From IMG/VR virus record IMGVR_UViG_3300041809_001460: a stretch of 20,000 nucleotides of DNA; one strand, written 5' to 3'. The stretch comes from an uncultured virus (IMG/VR IMGVR_UViG_3300041809_001460) (taxonomy: Duplodnaviria > Heunggongvirae > Uroviricota > Caudoviricetes). Under the pieces are notes generated by a model. That model ran no database searches. It was not told where the DNA came from and saw only the letters and a program-made list of their open reading frames with translations. This document shows, in pieces, positions 1,174 through 18,232 of the stretch. Position 1 is the first letter of the stretch. Every line of letters begins with the position of its first letter. The position numbers were made by a program, and so were the translations under genes.

Positions 1174-1201
1174 TTGACTTTACGCCCCAGCGCGGTAGAA
1201 T
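1174..1201 (+). promoter_or_regulatory. Sigma70-type promoter TTGACT-N16-TAGAAT
   Basis: Near-consensus -35 (1174-1179) and -10 (1196-1201) in an intergenic gap, with an A-rich upstream tract at 1153-1170. Confidence 0.65.
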
Positions 1202-1482: not shown

Positions 1483-1751
1483 AGAAATGCCAACATTGCC
1501 GAGAGGAAGTTTTACCGGGCGACGCTATCATGGCGTTCAACAACGGCGACGTGATCATGCACCGTGTCTGCGGACTTCGAGGCGTGATCGGCTCCGTGGC
1601 GCATCTCCAACGCCGGTGCTCCTGCTATGTCAAGGGATCGACCGAGGACGATCCGCCCGAGATGACACGCCGCCAGGCCGCGGAAGCAGCGGTTACGCTC
1701 TGGGAAACACAGAATCTAGGTAGTAAAGATGGGCCGAAAATTCACAGTTGA
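1479..1751 (+). CDS. Hypothetical protein, putative Zn-binding (CxxC...HxxC)
   Basis: CQHC...HRVC...CSC; coupled start GTGA and GAGG SD upstream. Confidence 0.65.
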   Translation: MKKCQHCREEVLPGDAIMAFNNGDVIMHRVCGLRGVIGSVAHLQRRCSCYVKGSTEDDPPEMTRRQAAEAAVTLWETQNLGSKDGPKIHS

Positions 1752-1778
1752 CAGGAGCGCCCGGCGGCGCTCTACTGT
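1748..1778 (+). promoter_or_regulatory. TTGACA-N19-TACTGT with a dyad (GAGCGCC-cggc-GGCGCTC) in the spacer; promoter/operator or weak terminator hairpin
   Basis: TTGACA at 1748-1753, inverted repeat 1755-1761/1766-1772, TACTGT at 1773-1778, directly upstream of the sigma-like gene. Confidence 0.4.
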
Positions 1779-1813: not shown

Positions 1814-3460
1814 ATGCAAGTTTCTCCTCTAGTGGACAGCTGCCAACGCCTAATCCACCAAAAAGCCTTTCGTACCTACCATCGAATCGCACCGGAAAAC
1901 CGGCGCTGGATCGATCCTGAGGACGTGATACAGGACGGGATCATCGCTGCCTGGGAAGCCGAGCAGCGCTACAAGAAGAACCGCGGCGCTAAGTTTTCTA
2001 CCTATCTCTACAACGGTCTGGACATGCTGTTCTCGGGGAAGTATACCGTTCCTTTGAGACAGAAGAAGCGCCAAGCGTCGCTGCTGGAGCTGGACGCGCC
2101 GTTGCAGCTTGAGGACGGTAGTACCGCGCTGCACGAGTCCATTTCCGATGACGAGCATCCCAGCCAGTCCCCAGACAAAATGTTCGAGGCCATCTCCGGG
2201 GTTCTGCGGGTCTGCCATTCGATCCCGCCCTCAGCCCTGAGTTTCTTTCTGCAGGTGATCACCGACGAGACCGGACGGATACTGCGGCGGGACATTGTTG
2301 ACAAGAACAAACAGCTGCGAAGACGTAATGTAGACTTTATAGGATGTATACCTGAGACCTGCCGACGGTACAAAGTGACTCGGGAGGACTTGGCGCTGGT
2401 TATGGCGAGCGGTTATGCAAAGGGGATCGTGGTGGATGGAGTAGTGAAGTCCGCCGAGCACCTGGGAGAAGACGATGCCAAGGTGCTGGAGTGTCTTGAG
2501 TGCCGAGAACTGTTTTCATTGAACGATGCCCGGGCTGGGCGATACTCCGCTACGAGCCTTACTTGCTCGGCCTGTCTGCGCGGTCTACATCAGATCGGCC
2601 CGGATAACTCTTGCTTTGGACGGCGCAAGGTGGTAAAAAACGGTAGGACGGCAGCGGAGGGATATTCCGAAGCCGACGTCGAATGCAGATTGCATTGCCG
2701 CGACCGTGCAGCGTGCAGGAAGTATATCGAGGAAAGGGAGAAGGGTATGGCAGAGTCAGTTGACAACCTGGAACTCGAGTCGGAGCTGGAGGGGGTTGAC
2801 TTCAGCGACATCGAGGAAGAGGAAGAAGTTCCTGAAGTAGAACCTGAAACCAAAAAGCCCGCAACGTCGAAGAAGGCCGTGAAGCCGGCCGCGACGAAGA
2901 CCGTCAAGGCAGCAAAGGCTGCACCGGCGAAAGCCGCGAAACCAACCAAGACGGTGAAAGCAGCCCCGGCCAAGGCTGTGAAGGCAACCAAGACGGTGAA
3001 AGCGGCTAAGAACGTGAAGAAAGCCGCTCCGGCTAAGGCTGCTAAAGCAGCGCCGGCGAAGCGCCTGCGCGCTGAACCTGGCCATGCGAAGACCCCGCGG
3101 AATACCCCATCGGGGAAGATCGACCCCAAGGTGGCATTGAAGAAGGGGCTGATCAAGCTGGATGCGAAGGGACGCGATCTGCCTTACAAGGATGGGAGCG
3201 TGATGCGCTACTACCTTGAGCAGGCGTTGCAGCCCGGCGGAGTCAGCGAGGACTCGCTCGAGAAGTGGGCGATGAAGAACGGCTACGACCACCGCTATCA
3301 GCGTGCGGTTCTGGTTTCCGGGCAGAACGGCGGCACCGCCGTACGGCCCTACGCCACGACCCACACCTGGAAGGTGGAAGTGAAGAATGGCCGCATCCGC
3401 GTGTACGACCTGAAGCGGATCGCCTACTACAAGAAGATCGGGCGGCTGTTCAAGAAATAA
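1814..3460 (+). CDS. Sigma-70-family-like factor fused to a Cys-rich module, acidic linker, histone H1-like Lys/Ala/Pro tract and a C-terminal globular domain
   Basis: Region 2-like IDPEDVIQDGIIAAWEAEQRYKKNRGAKFSTYLY; region 3-like LELDAPLQLEDG...LHESISD; degenerate 4.2-like ETCRRYKVTREDL; CLEC/CSAC/CFG/CRLHC-x5-C; EEEEEVPEVEPE; KAAPAKAAK repeats. Start ATG 1814 follows AAGGTG. Confidence 0.75.
   Translation: MQVSPLVDSCQRLIHQKAFRTYHRIAPENRRWIDPEDVIQDGIIAAWEAEQRYKKNRGAKFSTYLYNGLDMLFSGKYTVPLRQKKRQASLLELDAPLQLEDGSTALHESISDDEHPSQSPDKMFEAISGVLRVCHSIPPSALSFFLQVITDETGRILRRDIVDKNKQLRRRNVDFIGCIPETCRRYKVTREDLALVMASGYAKGIVVDGVVKSAEHLGEDDAKVLECLECRELFSLNDARAGRYSATSLTCSACLRGLHQIGPDNSCFGRRKVVKNGRTAAEGYSEADVECRLHCRDRAACRKYIEEREKGMAESVDNLELESELEGVDFSDIEEEEEVPEVEPETKKPATSKKAVKPAATKTVKAAKAAPAKAAKPTKTVKAAPAKAVKATKTVKAAKNVKKAAPAKAAKAAPAKRLRAEPGHAKTPRNTPSGKIDPKVALKKGLIKLDAKGRDLPYKDGSVMRYYLEQALQPGGVSEDSLEKWAMKNGYDHRYQRAVLVSGQNGGTAVRPYATTHTWKVEVKNGRIRVYDLKRIAYYKKIGRLFKK
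2322..2345 (+). promoter_or_regulatory. Phage-type promoter motif copy 1 (intragenic): GACG-N10-TTTA-TAGGAT
   Basis: GACG 2322-2325, TTTA 2336-2339, TAGGAT 2340-2345; shares TTTATAGGATGTA with the copy at 9376. Confidence 0.55.
2851..3062 (+). repeat. Low-complexity coding repeat (K/A/P/T/V, histone H1-like)
   Basis: Repeated KAAPAK/TKTVK units; 19-nt direct repeat CAACCAAGACGGTGAAAGC at 2943-2961 and 2985-3003. Confidence 0.85.
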
Positions 3461-3481
3461 CTTTTCTCTCGGAGAGGGAAT

Positions 3482-3512
3482 AAACCGGCGTCGCTGACGC
3501 CGGTTTTCTTTT
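3482..3512 (+). terminator. Rho-independent terminator
   Basis: AAACCGGCGTC-gct-GACGCCGGTTT followed by TCTTTT; a weaker hairpin at 3462-3480 precedes it. Confidence 0.85.
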
Positions 3513-3519
3513 ATAGAAT
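3496..3519 (+). promoter_or_regulatory. Phage-type promoter motif copy 2: GACG-N10-TTTA-TAGAAT, 6 nt before ATG 3526
   Basis: Same spacing as the other copies; the downstream gene has no SD; overlaps the 3' arm of the terminator. Confidence 0.65.
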
Positions 3520-4584: not shown

Positions 4585-4608
4585 GACGCGAAAGGAGTTT
4601 TATAAAGT
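4585..4608 (+). promoter_or_regulatory. Phage-type promoter motif copy 3: GACG-N10-TTTA-TAAAGT, 5 nt before ATG 4614
   Basis: GACG 4585-4588, TTTA 4599-4602, TAAAGT 4603-4608. Confidence 0.6.
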
Positions 4609-4613
4609 AGGGC

Positions 4614-5684
4614 ATGGCTACGCAGCAAGCGAAGATTCCTGCAAAAAACTTTCGCGCCCTGATCAGAGGAATTCTAAAGTTCCGGCCTTCTGCAGCAGCG
4701 CCAACGTCCCAGATCGTCAACTTCTCTGTGAACAACGGCCGCGCCCGCGCCTCTATTGGCGGGGGCCAGGGCACCGTGATTACGACCGGCGCTGTACTAG
4801 CGACACGGGAGGTCGAACCATTCGGCGCTTATTACAGCCACCTGGAGAGCTACGCTAATCTGCTGCCGGACGAGGGCGACGTGGAGTTGTCCAGGACCGA
4901 CGGGGATGTGCTGTTTTTGTGTGGGCCGAAACGCCGCCTCAAGCTGGCGCTGACCCCGGGCATCGTGATCCCGAGGCCCAAGGTGCCCGAGCCTTTCTTC
5001 GTGGCTGATGAGGAGACCGCGAAGATGCTGAAGTGGCTCGTGAGCGTAGCGGAGAAGGATGAGACCAAGCCGGACATGTGCTGCGTTTATCTGCGCAACG
5101 GCAGCGCCATGGCCGGGAATCAGAAGTGCATCGCCGTGGTGAAGCATGAGCGGCTGCCTGACGTGGAGTTGCCGCTGCCGCTGGCCGTATGCAATGTGCT
5201 CGAGCCGGGCGACAAGCTGGCCCGAACCGATAAGGGGCTGCTGCTGGTCAGCGGTGGATGCGTCTCTCAGATTCCGTATCTGATCCAGACCTTGCACTTC
5301 CCTGTAGGGACGATAGACCGCCTGGACAACGCTAAAGCTGAGAACTATGGGCACAGCACCGGCGACGCTATGAGAGTGGTGTTCAAGGAATCAGCTGATT
5401 GTGTGGCGCGGGTCCCGGGAGCGCAGGCCTGTGTGGTTCTGACCTTTGGCAAGGACGGAATCCAGGCTCGAGCGCAAAGCCAGAACGCGGCCTTCCGCAC
5501 GGTGCTGGATGGGACGGTTGAGAAGGACGGTGAATTGTGGCTGGAGCTGCCGGAAGCTGAAGAGGCTCTGGACCTGTTTGCTAATGGTGATGTGTTCTGC
5601 AAGAAGCTGTTGCCCAAGGGTGAGGCGATGCTCGAGGGGAACGGGGCGAAAGCCTTCTTCGCCCCCGTGCATCCGATCGGTTAA
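4614..5684 (+). CDS. Divergent DNA sliding clamp (DnaN/beta-clamp-like)
   Basis: 356 aa, alternating beta/alpha pattern. VAEKDETKPDMCCVYL...AMAGNQKCIAV resembles the beta-clamp 'A..DETRP.L.GV....VATDGHRLA' segment. A DnaX-like gene is in the same cluster. Confidence 0.6.
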   Translation: MATQQAKIPAKNFRALIRGILKFRPSAAAPTSQIVNFSVNNGRARASIGGGQGTVITTGAVLATREVEPFGAYYSHLESYANLLPDEGDVELSRTDGDVLFLCGPKRRLKLALTPGIVIPRPKVPEPFFVADEETAKMLKWLVSVAEKDETKPDMCCVYLRNGSAMAGNQKCIAVVKHERLPDVELPLPLAVCNVLEPGDKLARTDKGLLLVSGGCVSQIPYLIQTLHFPVGTIDRLDNAKAENYGHSTGDAMRVVFKESADCVARVPGAQACVVLTFGKDGIQARAQSQNAAFRTVLDGTVEKDGELWLELPEAEEALDLFANGDVFCKKLLPKGEAMLEGNGAKAFFAPVHPIG

Positions 5685-5848: not shown

Positions 5849-6100
5849 ATGGACGTAGAAGGTTCTTCCTATACCGATGAGGACGTGACGAAGGCATTTC
5901 GCGATGGTGAGCGCTGCTATCTCTGCGGCGGCACTTCATGGCTGGCTGGGCCTGAAGCTGGTCTAAGCCGGAACATTGAGTGCGAGGGATGTGGTGTTGA
6001 TCTCAACGTTTCACCGCTCTCCGTAGAGAGGATTGGCTGGAACCTGTCCGGCCGCTTCAATGATGACGGAACACTGAAACAGAAAATCCATGCCATTTGA
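5849..6100 (+). CDS. Small Zn-ribbon protein
   Basis: CYLC...CEGC; AAGGGAG SD upstream. Confidence 0.7.
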   Translation: MDVEGSSYTDEDVTKAFRDGERCYLCGGTSWLAGPEAGLSRNIECEGCGVDLNVSPLSVERIGWNLSGRFNDDGTLKQKIHAI

Positions 6101-8954
6101 AGAGCTAGTACAGGTTCGGACCGTCAAGCGAAAAAGCTTGAAGACGGACCCGCGCGGCTGCGAAGTGTGCCCGCTGAACGAGATCAAGGGAATTCAGAAG
6201 ATCATGGGCACCGTCGAGGGCAAGTCCATTCTCATTGTCGGGCAGAGCCCAGGCCAGAATGAGAACCGCGAGGGACAGGAATTCATTGGCGATGCCGGAG
6301 AATTTCTCTGGAACGAGCTGGACCTGGTGGGAATACACCGTGAGGACTGCGACATCTTCAACGTGGTTCGATGCCTGCCAGCGGACCAAATAGCCGGGAC
6401 CTACAGCTCGCGGCTTGTGATGCGGAGTCCGACGCCAGTCGAGATTCACTGCTGCTCTATCCACACTGAGGAAGCCCTGACGAAAACCAAGGCTCGGCAC
6501 ATCCTGATTCTGGGGCAGATCGCGCAGAAGGCATTTCTCAAGACCCGATCAGTCCCCGCGCAGAAGATTTTCTGGAGTGAGGAGCATCAAGCCAAAATCT
6601 ATTTAGCCGACCACCCAGCGTTCTTTGTGCGTGGCTACGGAGCCGGAGCCAGGATCGAGGCGTTCCGCGAGACCATGAAGCAGCTGGCTGCTGATTGGCA
6701 GAGCGCCGACGACGACACAGCGTCCGACAACTATCGCTACCTGCGGGAGCAGAAATACCATCTGATCCTAACTGAGGAGAGGGCCTGGAATGTCGGCCGT
6801 TTTCTACTCGCGTACGCTCGCAAAGGCATTCGCGTATCCGCCGACATCGAGTACGACATCATCGACGGAAAGAAGCTGATCTTCGCCGTCGGTTTCAGCC
6901 CCAAACCGGGCTTGTCTTTCATCTTCGTGTTCGACCATCCGAAGATCGCGCAGGCGCCACGCGACAGCAAGAAGTGCCGTGAGATGGCCTGGGCGCTGCT
7001 CAAGGCTGAGAACGTAAAGAAGGTGATGCACTTCGGGTGCTCCGACGTGAACGCGCTGCGAGAGGCCGGCGTCGAGACCAAGGGATACGACTGGGATACG
7101 AATTACAGCGAGTATCTTTACTATCCCGATGAGCACAACAAATACGGACTGGCGAACATCGCTGAGAGGAGATTCCAGCAATTCTCCGGTTACAAGTCCA
7201 TCATCTTTGACGATCTTTTTGACGCTGCGCCGCCGGGGGTCGAGCCCCCTGCCAATATCCGCAATGGCTCTTACGATGCTAAGGAAACGTGGTTGAAGCA
7301 GCACGACCTGTTTCACCTGACGAACCTGAGGCCAGACACGCTGCGCTTGTATACGGGAGGCGACGCCGATCTGACCAAGCGTATCGAGATCGACAACAAG
7401 AAGAAGGTGCCGCACGCGCTGGTGAAGCTGTACATGGACCTCGGGTTTTTGCTGCTGGCGATGGAGGACAACGGTCCCTGGTTCGACGAGTGGCAGCACC
7501 GGCAGGTGCATCGGCTCTGGCCGCATCTAGCTGCTGAGGCGCTCGAGAAGGTGCGGAAGATGATCGGAGACCCCGATTTCAACCCTGGCAGTTCCAAACA
7601 GGTCTACGACGCTATCTACCGGCGGCTCCATTTGCAATACCCGCTGCACAAGGGGAAGCCCAATACGCGAAAGCAGACCATGATGATGCTCTCGCGGGAG
7701 CACCCATTTCCGGGGGCTGTTCTTGCTTGGAGGAAGGCGAGTAAGGTTGTCTCCACCTACATTGACGGCCCCTATGAGGTAGCCAAGAGATTCGGTGGCC
7801 GTGTGAGGACTACGTGGTGGGCCACCGGCACAGCTGCCGGCCGGTTGTCGAGCAGCGGTGGTGATGAAGGGGGCATGAACCTGCAGAACCTGCACAAGGA
7901 CAAGCGTCTGCAGAATCTCTACGTGTCCGATAAACGCTGGCGGCGAGTATTCAACGCGATCAAGAGCATTCTTAAAACCGAGCCGCGGGTGATGTGGGAG
8001 CAGCTGATCGAGCAGTGGGTTCGCGAGAATATGCCCGATCTCAAGACCTTTCTGATTCTGGACTACGGGCAGATTGAAGTGCGTGTGGCCGCGCAGGTGT
8101 CGGGCGACGAGAACCTGATCGCGGATTGCGCCTCAGCCGACATCCACAGCACAGTCGGATCGCGTATGACCGGTTGGAGTGTCGTGAAGATCAAACACGA
8201 CAACAAAACCCGTACCTTGACCAAGAACGTCCACTTCGGGATTATGTTCGGCATCGACCGCCGGAACCTGTTTGAGTTCATCAAGGCTATGGACCCTGAT
8301 TTCAACGGCACCGAGGAAGAGGTGTTCGCGCAGTTCGACCGCTACTTCGAGCGGTATACCGGCATCGCCAGATACATCGAATCGCAGCGGGAGCTGGCGC
8401 AGGATCAGGGGTATGTGGAGACGATATTCGGATTGCACCGAGCGCTGAACCTCACCAGCTTCCGCAAGGACTTCGATGACGAGGACGGTGATAGCGACGA
8501 CTACATTGACGCAGCTGGTGAGAGGCAGACTTCGTGGCGCAATCAATGTATCAATACGCCGGTGCAGGGATCAGCCCACCAGCTGCTCGAGTGCGGGATG
8601 GTGAATATGGTGAGGAAGCCCCAAGAGTATACGGTCCTGGGAACGCCATCGATGGACGTACACGACGCACTCTACTTTATTGTGAACGTGCTGGAGCTGC
8701 AGGAGGCTTACCGCAAGGCGCGGTATTTGATGGAAGTGGATTCCCTCGCAACCGTGAAGAGCGACTTTCCTGAGATCGATTGGAAAGTGCCGATCGTGGT
8801 TGAGGCTGAGGCTGGGCTGAGGCTGGGCACGCGTGTGGAGCTGAAGGATGACCAGTTCACCGTGGGAGGCTATTTGCTGGATTGGTACAACGTGACTAAG
8901 AAGCAAATCCTTGATATGAAGAAGCAGCTGGATGAGCTGCCGGGGGCTGCATGA
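6090..8954 (+). CDS. Family A DNA polymerase with N-terminal family-4 uracil-DNA-glycosylase-like domain and 3'-5' exonuclease
   Basis: UDG4-like: CEVC, IVGQSPG..E..EG.EFIG.AG, NVVRC.P, EIHCC, HPA. Exonuclease: ADIEYD, YTGGD. Polymerase: GRLSS, NLQN, motif A DYGQIEVR, motif B RTLTKNVHFGIMFG, NTPVQGSA, motif C VHDA. Confidence 0.95.
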   Translation: MPFEELVQVRTVKRKSLKTDPRGCEVCPLNEIKGIQKIMGTVEGKSILIVGQSPGQNENREGQEFIGDAGEFLWNELDLVGIHREDCDIFNVVRCLPADQIAGTYSSRLVMRSPTPVEIHCCSIHTEEALTKTKARHILILGQIAQKAFLKTRSVPAQKIFWSEEHQAKIYLADHPAFFVRGYGAGARIEAFRETMKQLAADWQSADDDTASDNYRYLREQKYHLILTEERAWNVGRFLLAYARKGIRVSADIEYDIIDGKKLIFAVGFSPKPGLSFIFVFDHPKIAQAPRDSKKCREMAWALLKAENVKKVMHFGCSDVNALREAGVETKGYDWDTNYSEYLYYPDEHNKYGLANIAERRFQQFSGYKSIIFDDLFDAAPPGVEPPANIRNGSYDAKETWLKQHDLFHLTNLRPDTLRLYTGGDADLTKRIEIDNKKKVPHALVKLYMDLGFLLLAMEDNGPWFDEWQHRQVHRLWPHLAAEALEKVRKMIGDPDFNPGSSKQVYDAIYRRLHLQYPLHKGKPNTRKQTMMMLSREHPFPGAVLAWRKASKVVSTYIDGPYEVAKRFGGRVRTTWWATGTAAGRLSSSGGDEGGMNLQNLHKDKRLQNLYVSDKRWRRVFNAIKSILKTEPRVMWEQLIEQWVRENMPDLKTFLILDYGQIEVRVAAQVSGDENLIADCASADIHSTVGSRMTGWSVVKIKHDNKTRTLTKNVHFGIMFGIDRRNLFEFIKAMDPDFNGTEEEVFAQFDRYFERYTGIARYIESQRELAQDQGYVETIFGLHRALNLTSFRKDFDDEDGDSDDYIDAAGERQTSWRNQCINTPVQGSAHQLLECGMVNMVRKPQEYTVLGTPSMDVHDALYFIVNVLELQEAYRKARYLMEVDSLATVKSDFPEIDWKVPIVVEAEAGLRLGTRVELKDDQFTVGGYLLDWYNVTKKQILDMKKQLDELPGAA

Positions 8955-9373
8955 TCGACCGCTTCGAGGGTGAGAACAGGTTTCTCTCCAACTTTTATCC
9001 GTCGCCCGTGATGTATCAGGGGATTGTCTACCCCTCCGTGGAGTGTGCTTTTCAGGCTGCGAAGACTTTGGACACCAAGGTGCGCGCTGAGTTCGCGCAG
9101 CTTACAGCAGCGCAGGCCAAGAGCCATGGGCGCAGGGTCAAGCTACGTGAGGATTGGGAGAGCGTGAAGTTAGAGATTATGGAGATACTGCTGCGACGTA
9201 AGTTCAAGGACTCGACGCTGAGAGCTAAGCTGCTCGCGACCGGCCAGGAACAGCTGATTGAAGGCAACTGGTGGCATGACACCTTTTGGGGGGTCTGCAA
9301 CGGCGTGGGCGAGAACCACCTCGGCCGACTGCTGATGCGGGTGCGAGACGAGATTCGAGTTGACGGCCGCTGA
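8951..9373 (+). CDS. NADAR (YbiA-like) ADP-ribosylhydrolase family protein
   Basis: FLSNFY, YPSVE.AFQAAK, AK..GR, LREDWE, RKF, LLATG, LIEGN.WHD.FWG, GENHLGRLLM.VR. Confidence 0.93.
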   Translation: MIDRFEGENRFLSNFYPSPVMYQGIVYPSVECAFQAAKTLDTKVRAEFAQLTAAQAKSHGRRVKLREDWESVKLEIMEILLRRKFKDSTLRAKLLATGQEQLIEGNWWHDTFWGVCNGVGENHLGRLLMRVRDEIRVDGR

Positions 9374-9385
9374 ATTTTATAGGAT
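9362..9385 (+). promoter_or_regulatory. Phage-type promoter motif copy 4: GACG-N10-TTTA-TAGGAT, 6 nt before ATG 9392
   Basis: GACG 9362-9365, TTTA 9376-9379, TAGGAT 9380-9385. Confidence 0.65.
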
Positions 9386-9391
9386 GTAATG

Positions 9392-9937
9392 ATGGCGATT
9401 ACCGCTGACGTGCTAATCAAACGACTGGCCTTGGTGGACGAGAACGTTCTTGTCGAGGCCGCGCAGCAGCCGCTGCGATTTGTCGATGCTGCCAGGTATC
9501 GTGTCGCCGCGATGAAGAACCGAGCACAGGTGACCGCCGAGCTTGGGTATTTGAAGAGCCGTCTTGCGATGGCCATCCGGGCTAAGGGGAATGAGGCTGG
9601 AGAGCGCGTCACCGACAAGGCTTGTGCTGAGCGTGTGGAGAAGCATCGACTGGTACGGGCGCTGAGCGCGAAGCTGGACCGAGCCTTGGAGCTTGAGGAG
9701 TTTGCTCGGCTGATCATGGAGGCCTACAGGATGCGCCGTGACGCGATTCGAGTGATTGCCGAGACCCAGATCGCTGAGGGTGTGAAAGAGGGGCATGAGG
9801 TTGATCGGATCGAGCAACGCCGCCGACTACATACAGCTGCACGGAATTTGGAGCAGAAACGGTCGAGAATCGAAGCCCCGGGCAACGATGACCCGGACAT
9901 TGCCGACGGCGTGGAGCAGGAAGAGAACTTGAGATGA
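9392..9937 (+). CDS. UvsY-like helical recombination mediator protein
   Basis: LALVDENVLVEAAQQPLRF... followed by long amphipathic helices; located upstream of the SSB and RecA genes. Start is ATG 9389 or 9392. Confidence 0.5.
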   Translation: MAITADVLIKRLALVDENVLVEAAQQPLRFVDAARYRVAAMKNRAQVTAELGYLKSRLAMAIRAKGNEAGERVTDKACAERVEKHRLVRALSAKLDRALELEEFARLIMEAYRMRRDAIRVIAETQIAEGVKEGHEVDRIEQRRRLHTAARNLEQKRSRIEAPGNDDPDIADGVEQEENLR

Positions 9938-10266
9938 GCGACAAGCCGCTAAGTAAACTCGGCATTTCGGCTATTACCGTGAGCGTGGAGATAGCTGACA
10001 AGACCTACGGCTCCGGCGAGTCGTTGTTTATGTCGGTAGGATCGCGGCTGCCTGAATCCACGCCGGGTCTACCATTGACCGCTGATGAAGCCATTGACGA
10101 CGGCATCGATAAATACCTCGTGGCCTGGCAGACGCTGCTTCAGGCTGCGTTGGCGGAAGGAAGGATTTCTCAGGGCGATTATAAGAGGCAGACGGTTAAC
10201 ACATTGCATAGAGTAAAGCAGGTTCGCGAACTCTATCGTCGGATCGTGAAGGCGGAAGCCGTATGA
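9934..10266 (+). CDS. Hypothetical protein
   Basis: ATGA-coupled to the upstream gene; fits the operon. Confidence 0.7.
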   Translation: MSDKPLSKLGISAITVSVEIADKTYGSGESLFMSVGSRLPESTPGLPLTADEAIDDGIDKYLVAWQTLLQAALAEGRISQGDYKRQTVNTLHRVKQVRELYRRIVKAEAV

Positions 10267-14984: not shown

Positions 14985-15188
14985 ATGGATTGTAAAGACT
15001 GTAAGTGGGCTGCGAGAGCCAAGAGAGCGCCGGATTATCTGCGCTGCCATCTGAACCCTCCGCAGCTCGTGAGCATCAAGAACGTTGAGGGGAACCGCAA
15101 GGTGACGGGATTCTTCCCCATTGTCAACGAAGGAGACTTCTGCTCCTATTGGGAGGCACGACCCGATGCGCCTGCTGCTAACTTCTGA
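14985..15188 (+). CDS. Small Cys-rich phage protein
   Basis: CKDC...CHLNPP...FPIV...DFCSYW; GAGGAG SD. Confidence 0.75.
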   Translation: MDCKDCKWAARAKRAPDYLRCHLNPPQLVSIKNVEGNRKVTGFFPIVNEGDFCSYWEARPDAPAANF

Positions 15189-18009
15189 TTGGCAGGCCGA
15201 CTTCAGCAATTTGCAGGAGTGCGAGACCTCACTGGAAGAGCTGCTTGAGGCCGCAGCCAGGTACAAGCCTGCGGCGATCATTCACTGCGGCGACCTGAAG
15301 GAAGCCTATTCGCCGATCGACACCGAGGTGGTGAAGTTCTGCGTTCGAGCAGTGCGGCGCGTCTGCGAGGCCGGATACCGCTTCATTATTCTGCTCGGGA
15401 ACCATGACCGGGTAAGCCAGTCGGCTGAGTCGAAGGACTGGCTGGATGTGATGCAGGCGGCTGGGGCCGAGGTCGTTACCCGCCCCGCGGTCAAAAAGGT
15501 GGGGAATTTGGTTCTGGCGTGTCTTCCCTACATGGCGCTAGGCCAAGACACCATCCGGGCTGCGCAGGCTCTTCTACGGTCAACCCAGAGGGCCCCAGGG
15601 GCCAAAATTCTGCTATTCCACACGGAATTGGCGGGTTCTGAGCTGAATTCAGCTGGCCGGGTAGGGGTCGGCCCAACGGCCGAGGAGCTGGGATTCAGCC
15701 AGTACACAGCCTGCTTCGGCGGCCATATCCACAAGCACCAGAAAATAGACCAAAACGGCTGGTATGTCGGAGCACCGTTTTGCCAGGATTGGGGCGACGC
15801 CAACTCCAGCCGCGGGCATCTGCTGGTGGAGGTATTCGATGACGCGAGAAAGTGGGTTAAGGTCACGCAGCTGCGGACCAAGATTCCGCATTGGTATGAC
15901 GTGGAGTACCTCGAGAAGAACGGAATCATTCCCGAGCCTGGAGCCTATGTCCGCTCGCGAGTGAATGTGACCAGCCGCAAGATCACCGATCAGATGCGTG
16001 AGGAAGAAGAGCGGATCAGGAAAGCCTACGGTGATGTGCGGATTCATACCGTGCCTGAGCTGGTGGATGATGCGCCAGCGGAGATGGTGCTCAAGGGAGC
16101 TACCGATCGAGAGAAGATTGAGCAGTACGTGGCCGCGACCATTACCGAGCAGCATCGCTTCGAGCCGATGCAGGCTGTGAGTTATATGACTGCGAGGCTG
16201 GCCGGGACCAAGGAGGCTGCGCAGGGTGGCGAGCTGTATTTCAACCGTGTTGAGGCTGACAATGTTTTGGTATTCGAGCATGTGGCGATGCGCCTTGCGA
16301 AGCTTGGCCTCGTGCTGATTCGTGGTGAGAATCAGGATTGGCCTGGAAGATCAAACGGCACCGGCAAGAGTTCGCTGCTGAGTCTGACGCCGATCGCCAT
16401 GTTTGGGACCGTACCGAATAAAAAGCAGCGCTCCGACGCCTGGGCCTACGAACGCAACGAGGATCAGGCCTCGGTGAAGCTGACGTTGATGGACGCTGCC
16501 AAGCGCAAGATCGAAATCAGCCGCGGCCGCCGCCCCCACTTTATCTCCCTGCGTATCGATGGCGAGGACAAGTCGGCCGGGATCAGGGGCCTGGGCAAGA
16601 ATGAGACCCAAGGGCTGATCGAGCGCGCCACCGGCTACGACATACAGATGCTGATGAACGCCGTGTACATCGACCAGGCCGTGGCCAACGGTTTTGTATT
16701 CGGCACACCCGCCGGTCGCATGGACCTGATCGCGCGGTTCCAGAACCTCGAGCGCTTCGAGGAAGGACTGAAGCGCGTGAATGAGGATTACAAGAAGTGG
16801 GAGATGCGAGCTGCTTTGTTCTCAAACGAGATTGAGACCTTCGAGAGTGAGATCGCCAATCTTCAAGCTGAGCTGAAGGAGCTGGCAGAGCAGGCTGAGT
16901 CGGACTGGGCTGAGCAACTGCGGCATGAGCAATCGAATCTGGACAACCTGATCGAAGAGCACGCGGCTATAGCTGGTGTAGCTATTACCTATGAGGAGCT
17001 GCAGCGATCGCTCGACGATCTGGAAAAGGACCGGGAAAACATCAATAACGAAATTACGCTAGCCTCCCGGCAGGCTGGGATTATGGGAGACCGTCTGGGG
17101 CGTGGGCGCAAGCTGATTGAGTCGGGGAAGTGCCCGACGTGCCTGCAGCCGTCGACCGGAGCCGGAGAGAAGATTGTAGCCCAGGCCGAGAGGCAGCTGC
17201 TCGAGGCGCAGGATCAAGAGGAAAAGCGGAAGCGCGACCGCGATCTGGTGAAGGATCGCATCGATGCCGCAAGGAAGAAATTGACCGCCTACAACACGAG
17301 GAGGGACGATCTCAATGCCCAGATCAAGCGTGCTCGTGAGCGCCTGGGAGACCTTGAGAAGGCCGCTGCCGATGAAGCTGAGAGAAACGCTGGCCGCGAA
17401 GCTAAGATTCGACGCAAGAGCCTTCAGCTAGGGTTGCAGAAGCGTTATCGAAGAGCGGCGATCGCAGCGCGGCAGGAGATGAGCGTCGGAGTGGAGATGC
17501 TGGAATACGTGAAGAAAGCCTTCCAGCGCAGCGGCATTCCGCTTTATCTTTCTGTGTCTCTGTGTCCGCTGCTCAACAAGGCCGCCGAGGAGTATAGCGA
17601 AATCTTTACCGACGGCAATCTCAAGGTAAGTTTTCGTGTCGAGGACGGTGAATTTGCTGTGGATGTGGTGAACCCGGTTGGGTCATCGACCGTGGAGGGA
17701 CAGAGCGAGGGAGAATCGGCCATGGCGGGACTCATCGCGGCTTTTGCTTTGCGCGAGGCCGCGCCGAAGACCAACATGCTGATCCTGGATGAGCCTGGAA
17801 CGAAGCTGGACCCTGAGGGGTGCAAGCAGTTTGCGCGTGGAATTCTACGGCTCAAGGACCACTTCGAGACTATTCTGCTGGTCACGCACAGCCCCTACAT
17901 TTCGTCGCTGCTTTCCGGTGAGACGGTCTATACTGTGAAAAAGAGAAACGGACGTAGCCGTTTGTTTCTATCATCAAGCAGGGAGAGTGTGAGAAATGAG
18001 CAAGGTTAA
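15166..18009 (+). CDS. Fused SbcD(Mre11)-like nuclease and SbcC(Rad50)-like ABC ATPase
   Basis: Phosphoesterase motifs SDWQ, GDL, GNHD, FH, GHIH. ATPase motifs NGTGKSS, YIDQ, coiled coil with CPTC hook, QSEGE signature, LILDE, KLD, VTH. No stop between the halves; GGGAGG SD before ATG 15166. Confidence 0.92.
17951..17974 (+). promoter_or_regulatory. Phage-type promoter motif copy 5: GACG-N10-TTTC-TATCAT upstream of the cold-shock gene
   Basis: GACG 17951-17954, TTTC 17965-17968, TATCAT 17969-17974; AGGGAG SD and ATG 17996 follow. Confidence 0.5.
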
Positions 18010-18232
18010 CGACAGCCAAAGAGTACGCGGCAAGGTGAAGTGGTTCAACGCCGCCAAGGGTTTCGGATTCATTGGCCCCGACGACGGCAGCGAGGATGTG
18101 TTTGTTCACTACTCAGCCATCAGCGGTGAGGGGTTCAAGTCCCTTAACGAGCATGACGAGGTGGAGTACGCTACGCAGCCTTCCAAGAGCAAACCAGGCA
18201 AGTTCGAGGCGCTGGACGTCGTGAAGGTGTAA
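17996..18232 (+). CDS. Cold-shock domain protein (CspA family)
   Basis: [15 protein letters not shown] (RNP1), DVFVHYSAI (RNP2), GFKSL.E...VEY. Confidence 0.95.

Follow-up and report, generated by a model that had tools for sequence, protein, structure and literature searches.

The closest described counterpart of the gene treated here is the gp28/gp27 pair of phage SPO1. Gp27 is a condensate-forming helper that stimulates rather than inhibits, and a 2026 report presents it as the first protein of a phage that uses condensates to aid a weak phage sigma factor; its C-terminal domain consists of two helices and binds RNA polymerase, and the protein is described as restricted to SPO1 relatives (available text of PMC13401047). 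The DNA analysed was a 20,000-nucleotide (nt) stretch of an uncultured virus of the Caudoviricetes (IMG/VR record IMGVR_UViG_3300041809_001460), called the window throughout. The gene in question is one uninterrupted frame of 548 amino acids (aa) at positions 1814-3460, as an earlier note on this DNA had read it. It joins a sigma-70-like part in frame to a cysteine module homologous to the N-terminal domain of Gp27, a disordered linker and a winged-helix-like domain, and it very probably encodes two products, the second of which (the short form, 237 aa) begins at Met312. The explanation somewhat favoured here is that this sigma-Gp27-like fusion (the long form) switches on middle promoters, including its own internal one that yields the short form; the anatomy of the gene is well supported.

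In both phages a C-F-G/four-Cys module comes directly behind sigma-coding sequence and leads into a disordered, lysine-rich tract and then a small fold, and the helper part is served by early and middle promoters. The present gene differs from the SPO1 pair in being an in-frame fusion, in its additional CxxC-CxxC module and acidic head, in a winged-helix-like C-terminal domain where Gp27 has two helices, in its promoter consensus, and in the position of the second start, which lies behind the four-Cys module and leaves the short product without it.

Two-domain sigma factors (ECF, SigH-like) share with the long form a region 2, a 3.2-like linker, a helical domain and the absence of sigma-3; unlike them, it has an unrecognisable region 4 and about 330 extra residues, and the spacer of its putative promoters is 14, not about 17. 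Metal-sensing sigma factors of the CorE/CorE2 type (former ECF44, ECF238) likewise extend past the sigma-4 position into Cys-rich sequence; they are described in the available text of PMC8999054 as having CxC in the sigma2-sigma4 linker and a terminal Cys-rich domain. The linker here, in contrast, is without CxC (no Cys in aa 87-119), the cysteine pattern matches Gp27, a long tail and a winged helix are present, and the gene is phage-borne. In-frame isoforms and an in-frame nested gene are described for the phiC31 repressor and for two-polypeptide endolysins (available text of PMC4557955 and PMC9430671, respectively), where one gene likewise gives full-length and C-terminal products that share a stop; unlike those cases, the parent gene here codes for a sigma relative and the internal promoter is of the class that it is predicted to read. 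A literature search whose coverage took in a minority of subscription journals found no description of this fusion, of a nested phage-sigma product, or of a sigma gene with a nested in-frame helper or brake under its own promoter class.

Domain anatomy of the long form

A search with aa 1-315 returned 18 proteins including the query; the 17 homologues were 329-579 aa long, the one of 329 aa being a fragment from a cluster that contains a 484-aa member. A profile of the C-terminal (C) domain gave 65 matches among 1.84 billion representatives. The Cys module was carried by 50 proteins, a count that leaves out a partial entry (P0019) and an unrelated repeat protein (P0058), and the 47 with full architecture, query included, were aligned, three truncated proteins being omitted.

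The N-terminal part is a sigma-70 relative by its region 2, as the earlier note had proposed. The Pfam model Sigma70_r2 matched aa 6-66 (E 1.4e-9; 38 bits against a cutoff of 24) and 18/18 members at E<=0.5, and the fold matched 1sig_A with Z 9.8 (root-mean-square deviation [rmsd] 1.9, 70 residues aligned). SigA was the best match in a PDB profile search with the sigma part (E 1.4e-5), and a sigma-H chain, 3mzy_A, was also matched over positions 39-155 (E 0.0013). Kept in the 47 rows were D37 (46), Q40 (46), D/E41 (43), S62 (44) and Y64 (42), which align to RpoD D403, Q406, E407, S428 and Y430; these have known roles in RpoD, the tyrosine lying on the melting side. The query and SPO1 gp28 both matched phrog_351, and the query sigma-2 is nearer to cellular sigma factors than to gp28. 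Two further segments read from the letters alone were not confirmed. What had been taken for region 3 amounts to a short LDAP stretch that weakly resembles region 3.2 (3.4 bits with RpoD 506-531), and a folded sigma-3 domain is lacking in the predicted structure, where about 35 low-confidence residues lie between the domains. The supposed degenerate 4.2 helix falls in a segment (aa 120-216) that is predicted to be helical and that hhalign placed on RpoD in the earlier note's 4.2 register at a probability of 0.3%, and Pfam region-4 models matched 0/18 members.

Behind the sigma-like part eight Cys are invariant (47/47 rows). They had been described as a single 8-Cys module; the cysteines stand, and they fall into two modules within a region of low confidence in the predicted fold. 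The second module is the one shared with Gp27. A profile of family aa 258-312 ranked gp27 first of 309 SPO1 frames (12.9 bits), and hhalign of the family against gp27 gave 76-78% (E 2e-5, over 37 columns). A reciprocal profile from 8 gp27 proteins, in which four Cys are invariant, scored 51 family members at -5 to 16.5 bits; 19 of them lay above the best of 255 shuffles (2.8 bits), all 19 on the CFG module. Compared with the Gp27 module (C-F-G...EC-x2-C-x5-C), the module here has an extra His between the second and third Cys and a longer loop. gp27 was found directly behind an annotated sigma gene in 4 records and behind an aligned gp28 homologue in 4 more, gene 27 following gene 28 in SPO1 and in seven other annotated Spounavirinae. 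The lysine-rich disordered middle is alike in composition only (24 K/R in 75 aa here, 23 in 70 aa of Gp27). The N-terminal four-Cys set of Gp27 itself (SPO1 gene 27, L039:20262-20729) is a likely zinc site; the words zinc and cysteine are absent from the main text of PMC13401047.

The acidic stretch and the K/A/P tail of about 70 aa named in the earlier note were borne out by composition (Table 1). An acidic-then-basic linker occurs in 32/46 members, the L-E/D-G/D-V-D-F-type motif in 30/47 rows, and a second K/A tail behind the C domain in 14/45 members. The C domain, previously unrecognised, is winged-helix-like in its predicted fold, still without a Pfam family: the model of aa 431-548 is confident (pLDDT 82), and winged-helix proteins account for nearly all of its structural neighbours, with low Z scores (best 4.9; rmsd 5.2, 69 aligned). 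H1 was not among the 50 matches listed in this comparison, which does not exclude H1. Foldseek with both models returned zero matches at E<=0.001, the best viral row being a DUF3489 protein (E 0.14, a lead only); in the ESM Atlas the C domain matched unnamed clusters under 0.9 only and aa 113-311 matched nothing, and a profile of the short form found nothing relevant among PDB sequences.

K/A/P-rich tracts are features of linker histone H1, mycobacterial HupB and Pseudomonas AlgP, and H1 has a winged-helix fold. The present tail gave no sequence or fold-search match to H1 or HU domains, and in the query its tract lies N-terminal to the fold, behind an acidic block. The likeness to H1 is one of composition and general fold, at most a works-like one. 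An acidic-hydrophobic V-D-F motif (2774-2809) is conserved at the start of the short form and could contact a clamp; such a clamp contact is known from T4 late transcription. The tail of the single-stranded DNA-binding (SSB)-like protein of this phage (10297-11430) is long, acidic and rich in K/A/P (78% over 40 aa), as in the short form, and these two proteins could share a compartment.

The fusion is real, because 0/50 proteins end behind the Cys module, the junction is read identically in a second assembly (L002), and contigs from 4/4 RNA runs show no differing letter or indel at 2700-2750. It is kept in all 47 aligned proteins (25-58% identity to the query), and a lost stop or assembly artefact near 2747 is thereby ruled out. 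When the sigma side alone was searched among proteins of 30-300 aa, a single partial entry was found. Short database entries starting at the Met312 position (10, and 2 more), considered as candidates for a split form, all lie on contigs of 0.9-5 kb and may for that reason be fragments. Contigs of 50-180 kb also carry the winged-helix-like domain without a sigma part (P0077, P0078, P0030), P0078 being a 166-aa protein on a 95-kb contig and another candidate split form. In P0036, P0057, P0077, P0030, P0078 and P0074 the domain takes other arrangements: preceded by a CxxC module, duplicated in tandem, flanked only by K-rich sequence on the 95-kb contig, or joined to an additional C-terminal domain.

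The probable internal start and the GACG promoter class

Signals for an internal start are conserved at the domain boundary. Met312 is invariant in the first 18 sequences, and a Met stands 5-18 residues behind the last Cys in 49/50 Cys-module proteins (query counted; in the remaining protein it is Val), where the probability that some Met falls in that stretch by chance is about 0.23 per protein. The residue after Met312 is A/S/T/K in 38/49, compared with 117/394 for other Mets and with 1/52 behind the equally conserved structural Met of the C domain. In 8/8 loci with DNA the Met312 ATG has the strongest Shine-Dalgarno (SD) sequence among internal Mets (-5.6 to -8.5 kcal/mol, compared with a median of -2.4 for 60 others), it is stronger than that of the 5' start in 4/6 loci, and local RNA folding is weaker there (8 loci). 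Gene callers began 10 short entries at this position. Met197 was considered as a longer nested start and is not favoured: it outscores Met312 in two loci in a wider SD window, its SD lying about 14 nt away, and it is Met in 8/47 rows. The earlier note had offered a lost stop or nothing at 2747; the data point instead to an internal start in the same frame, served by a promoter of its own, and most of the H1-like activity would therefore probably reside in a separate short protein.

The GACG element proposed earlier held up as a promoter class, GACG-N14-TAnnRT, a motif derived from the window and refined after relatives. Occurrences of GACG-Nk-TAnnRT peak at k=14, with 7 in the window (0-1 at other k), 18 in relative G003 (1-6), 21 in G004 (1-8) and 10 in nine further loci (0-5). 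A stricter pattern, itself made from the window, occurs 4 times there against 0.01 in shuffles. Of the k=14 sites 54/56 are on the plus strand, the strand of the replication genes, and the class looks like middle promoters, since 1/17 plus-strand sites of G003 lies in the 42-kb arm read as structural. Its -10 part resembles the housekeeping consensus. Candidate readers of the GACG element are the 4.2-like helix, the Cys modules and, with equal claim, the winged helix.

One element lies within the coding sequence, 422-425 nt upstream of the internal ATG, and is kept in 6/9 loci (window, L003, L004, L008, L009, L010); its Ile codon is ATA in 6/6 loci, a codon that makes up 7% of Ile codons in ten window genes. 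Strong hairpins stand behind the stop in 8/8 loci, and the internal promoter is therefore without a downstream gene to serve. The overlap of the promoter at 3496 with the terminator hairpin of the sigma-like gene recurs in L003. Sister elements precede replication genes (Table 1); that before the clamp-like gene is found in L003, L005, L008 and L011 too. The genes for the methyltransferase, the clamp-like protein and the 182-aa protein appear to be transcribed without leaders from promoters of this class, and the cold-shock-domain gene region (17951-18232) has its own element and a strong ribosome-binding site (RBS).

Two sites upstream of the gene resemble early promoters. That at 1174 agrees with the sigma70 consensus at 10/12 positions, such sites not being enriched over shuffles in the window. 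The TTGACA-N17-TCTACT arrangement is present in 5/9 loci (window, L003, L004, L008, L010); L015 has a canonical site instead, and the pattern found none in L012, L014 and L016. This arrangement occurs once per genome, carries C at the normally invariant second -10 position, and may hold sigma expression low or be a hybrid promoter.

Nine RNA runs contain part of the window, and the contigs of four, three of them chosen for partial share, were compared. Each run (4/4) gave one contig of the 3' half (2352-3409, 2375-3291, 2537-3407 and 2196-3471). The contig from 2352 begins 7 nt past the -10 hexamer, an offset shared by leaderless ATGs at the sister promoters, and the contigs are taken as a hint of an internal message. 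Contig depths (9-24 for 3' contigs, 3-4 for 5' contigs) and cover gaps, which comprise parts of the 5' half and the DNA behind 3471, were not used as evidence. One X7 RNA contig (depth 3.3, short side) skips 122 nt within 1391-1514, probably an artefact.

Table 1. Coordinates of features in the window
Feature	Position	Strand	Remarks
Sigma70-type early promoter-like site TTGACT-N16-TAGAAT	1174..1201	+	two small open reading frames (ORFs) upstream of gene
TTGACA-N17-TCTACT, candidate weak early promoter	1748..1776	+	non-consensus -10; directly upstream of gene
Long ORF, 548 aa: sigma-like part, Cys modules, disordered linker, winged-helix-like domain	1814..3460	+	moderate SD, -4.4 kcal/mol
Sigma region-2 domain, aa 1-86	1814..2071	+	Pfam, fold, PDB profile search
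Region 3.2-like linker (ELDAP), aa 90-112	2081..2149	+	weak; no folded sigma-3 domain ahead
Helical domain in sigma-4 position, aa 120-216	2171..2461	+	predicted helices
Intragenic GACG-N14-TAGGAT promoter-like element	2322..2345	+	predicted +1 near 2351-2352
First Cys module CxxC-x20-CxxC, aa 227-254	2492..2575	+	zinc-ribbon-like by pattern; putative metal binding
Second Cys module C-F-G...C-x3-C-x5-C, aa 257-306	2582..2731	+	homologous to SPO1 Gp27 N-terminal domain
Internal Shine-Dalgarno (-8.4 kcal/mol) and ATG 2747 (Met312)	2729..2749	+
Nested in-frame ORF, short form, 237 aa	2747..3460	+	putative translation
Acidic head, aa 312-345, net -16	2747..2848	+	L-E/D-G/D-V-D-F-type motif
K/A/P-rich disordered tract, aa 346-420, net +24	2849..3073	+	75% K/A/P
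Winged-helix-like C-terminal domain, aa 431-548	3104..3457	+	fold model; no Pfam family
Intrinsic-terminator-like hairpin and T tract	3482..3513	+	overlaps next GACG element
GACG-N14 element before DNA methyltransferase gene	3496..3519	+	ATG (3526) at +7, leaderless
GACG-N14 element before clamp-like gene and polymerase	4585..4608	+	ATG (4614) at +6
GACG-N14 element before 182-aa, SSB-like and RecA genes	9362..9385	+	ATG (9389-9392) at +4/+7
GACG-N14 element upstream of SSB-like gene	10191..10214	+
GACG-N14 element before cold-shock-domain gene	17951..17974	+

Genomic setting

By annotation of the encoded proteins, the window is a phage replication arm. Its genes code for a 5'-3' exonuclease, the sigma-like protein, an N6/N4 methyltransferase, a clamp-like protein, a uracil-DNA-glycosylase (UDG)-PolA protein, NADAR, the SSB-like protein, RecA, a clamp loader, a fused SbcD/SbcC and a cold-shock protein, and the order primase, exonuclease, sigma-like gene, clamp-like gene, polymerase is conserved in relatives. 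The relatives' contigs reach 135 kb, and the genome of G003 is complete, with a length of 118.9 kb and terminal repeats. A scan of its 117 predicted ORFs, a rough gene set that is not complete, gave one sigma-family match and zero RNA-polymerase matches. Sequencing runs containing the window carry the label wetland metagenome. Either half of the protein had zero matches in 50,697 GenBank phage records, and two pattern sets had zero in GTDB genome contigs. The sigma-like gene would on the favoured explanation be the middle-transcription switch of a family of uncultured phages of about 100-135 kb.

Among the neighbouring genes, the clamp-like gene (4614-5684) adjoins the sigma-like gene in most relatives. 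The UDG domain is fused to PolA at 6090-8954, and the G003 polymerase (L003:13590-17498) is about 350 aa longer than that of the window, possibly through an intein. At 15121-18009 an SbcD-like nuclease and an SbcC-like ATPase share one 962-aa frame, as in G003.

Proposed mechanism, alternatives and significance

The favoured course of events would begin with the host holoenzyme, which would transcribe the gene early from TTGACA-type sites, the modest RBS giving little long form. The long form would then bind host core RNA polymerase through sigma-2 and redirect it to the GACG-N14-TAnnRT promoters before the replication genes. The internal promoter, the strong internal RBS and the terminator would together give a message of about 1.15 kb for the 237-aa protein, made up of acidic head, basic K/A/P tract and winged helix. 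By analogy, this short form may coat or condense phage DNA. The long form shares its tail, has in addition the Gp27-type self-association module and may be drawn into the compartment; such recruitment would offset a weak sigma factor as Gp27 does for Gp28. The loop would be self-reinforcing at first, because the sigma factor drives its own helper, not itself. Of the earlier idea, one protein coupling promoter recognition with phage-DNA compaction, the link between promoter recognition and the DNA-binding tail is supported by the Gp27 homology, and the single-protein picture is probably lost.

Several observations weigh against this explanation. The RpoD W433/W434 pair is replaced by N67/G68 in the query, Trp is not among the four commonest residues in those columns of the 47 rows, and sigma-4 is not recognisable. 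On synonymous recoding there was no SD excess at Met312 beyond the contribution of K/E/G/R residues (P 0.24-0.60), and P values for the Met312 signals are overstated because the relatives are not independent. The GACG motif came from the window before its refinement on relatives; L012, L014 and L015 lack the intragenic element at the corresponding place, and the class is not evident in the short loci L012-L017. As for RNA, assembled contigs cannot show starts, strand or level, RNA runs alone were used (4/9, three picked for partial share), and one contig (X3) extends 156 nt across the predicted start. The query itself scores only -3 bits against the gp27 profile, the Gp27 link coming from profiles of the family and from members with a short loop. 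The C-terminal RNA-polymerase-binding domain of Gp27 and the C domain here are unrelated (hhalign 6.7%, 19 columns), and the fusion is therefore a Gp27 relative by one domain, not a family member; the short form is not a Gp27 equivalent, because the Gp27-type module is missing from it. A K/A/P-acidic tail is found on the SSB-like protein too, so such tails may be a general trait.

A more ambitious extension is tentative and rather doubtful. It would make the gene a self-amplifying one-gene compartment, in which the sigma factor transcribes its own histone-like truncation, the truncation condenses DNA and recruits holoenzyme, and the winged helix replaces sigma-4 on GACG; it adds zinc in the Gp27-type self-association module and a promoter with a 14-bp spacer inside coding sequence.

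It is unlikely, though slightly less far-fetched than the readings that follow, that both products exist and the short form is merely an abundant histone-like DNA-coating protein that plays no part in transcription, the tail of the long form being a passenger of an old fusion. Composition, the winged helix, the H1-like layout of the 14/45 members with a second K/A tail, and the sigma-less occurrences on 50-180 kb contigs fit this view. A passenger should, however, have been lost through a stop codon in some lineages, which was seen in 0/50 proteins and in none of the sigma-side searches, and the adjoining module is Gp27-like.

We regard as improbable a short form acting as a brake, sharing the winged helix and binding the GACG box or the same partner without sigma-2, and in negative feedback closing middle transcription as its amount rises. 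A product without an effector domain, made from the promoter class that the long form presumably drives, would suit that role, and the phiC31 repressor is a precedent for in-frame isoforms of a phage regulator (PMC4557955, available text). Sequence specificity of the winged helix has no support, however, the large basic tract suggests non-specific binding, and Gp27 stimulates and does not inhibit.

A further reading is improbable to the same degree. In it the long form is not a working sigma factor, its sigma-2 occupying core RNA polymerase as an inhibitor or appropriator, and the GACG promoters are read by host sigma at the -10 and by a phage activator near -30, possibly the winged helix, in the manner of T4 middle promoters. 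The MotA box of T4 sits at -30. T4 middle promoters require MotA and AsiA (PMC6024815). The housekeeping-like -10 part, the unrecognisable sigma-4 and the missing tryptophan pair are as this reading expects; the RpoD-aligned residues are nevertheless kept in 42-46/47 rows, including a melting-side Tyr that an inhibitor would not need, and synteny and a domain link the gene to the SPO1 gp28/gp27 pair. Least probable is a single protein, with Met312 as a fusion relic or structural residue and an intragenic GACG element that acts for downstream genes or has no function. Met464 is equally conserved (38/47 vs 39/47 by column), the recoding test was negative and in SPO1 gp27 a Met that lacks an SD stands 7 residues past the last Cys, but the variable offset, N-terminal residue signature, SD and open structure at Met312, the terminator that leaves the internal promoter no downstream gene, and the RNA contigs speak against it.

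The favoured explanation, a fusion that switches on middle promoters including its own, would make the gene a small experimental model, in which two products of one gene can be studied with a single defined promoter class that has an unusual 14-bp spacer and includes several leaderless targets. The comparison points to a four-cysteine, probably zinc, site in Gp27 itself. That a distant phage family naturally fuses a sigma factor to the N-terminal module of Gp27 suggests an older and wider origin for the coupling of sigma factors to condensates.

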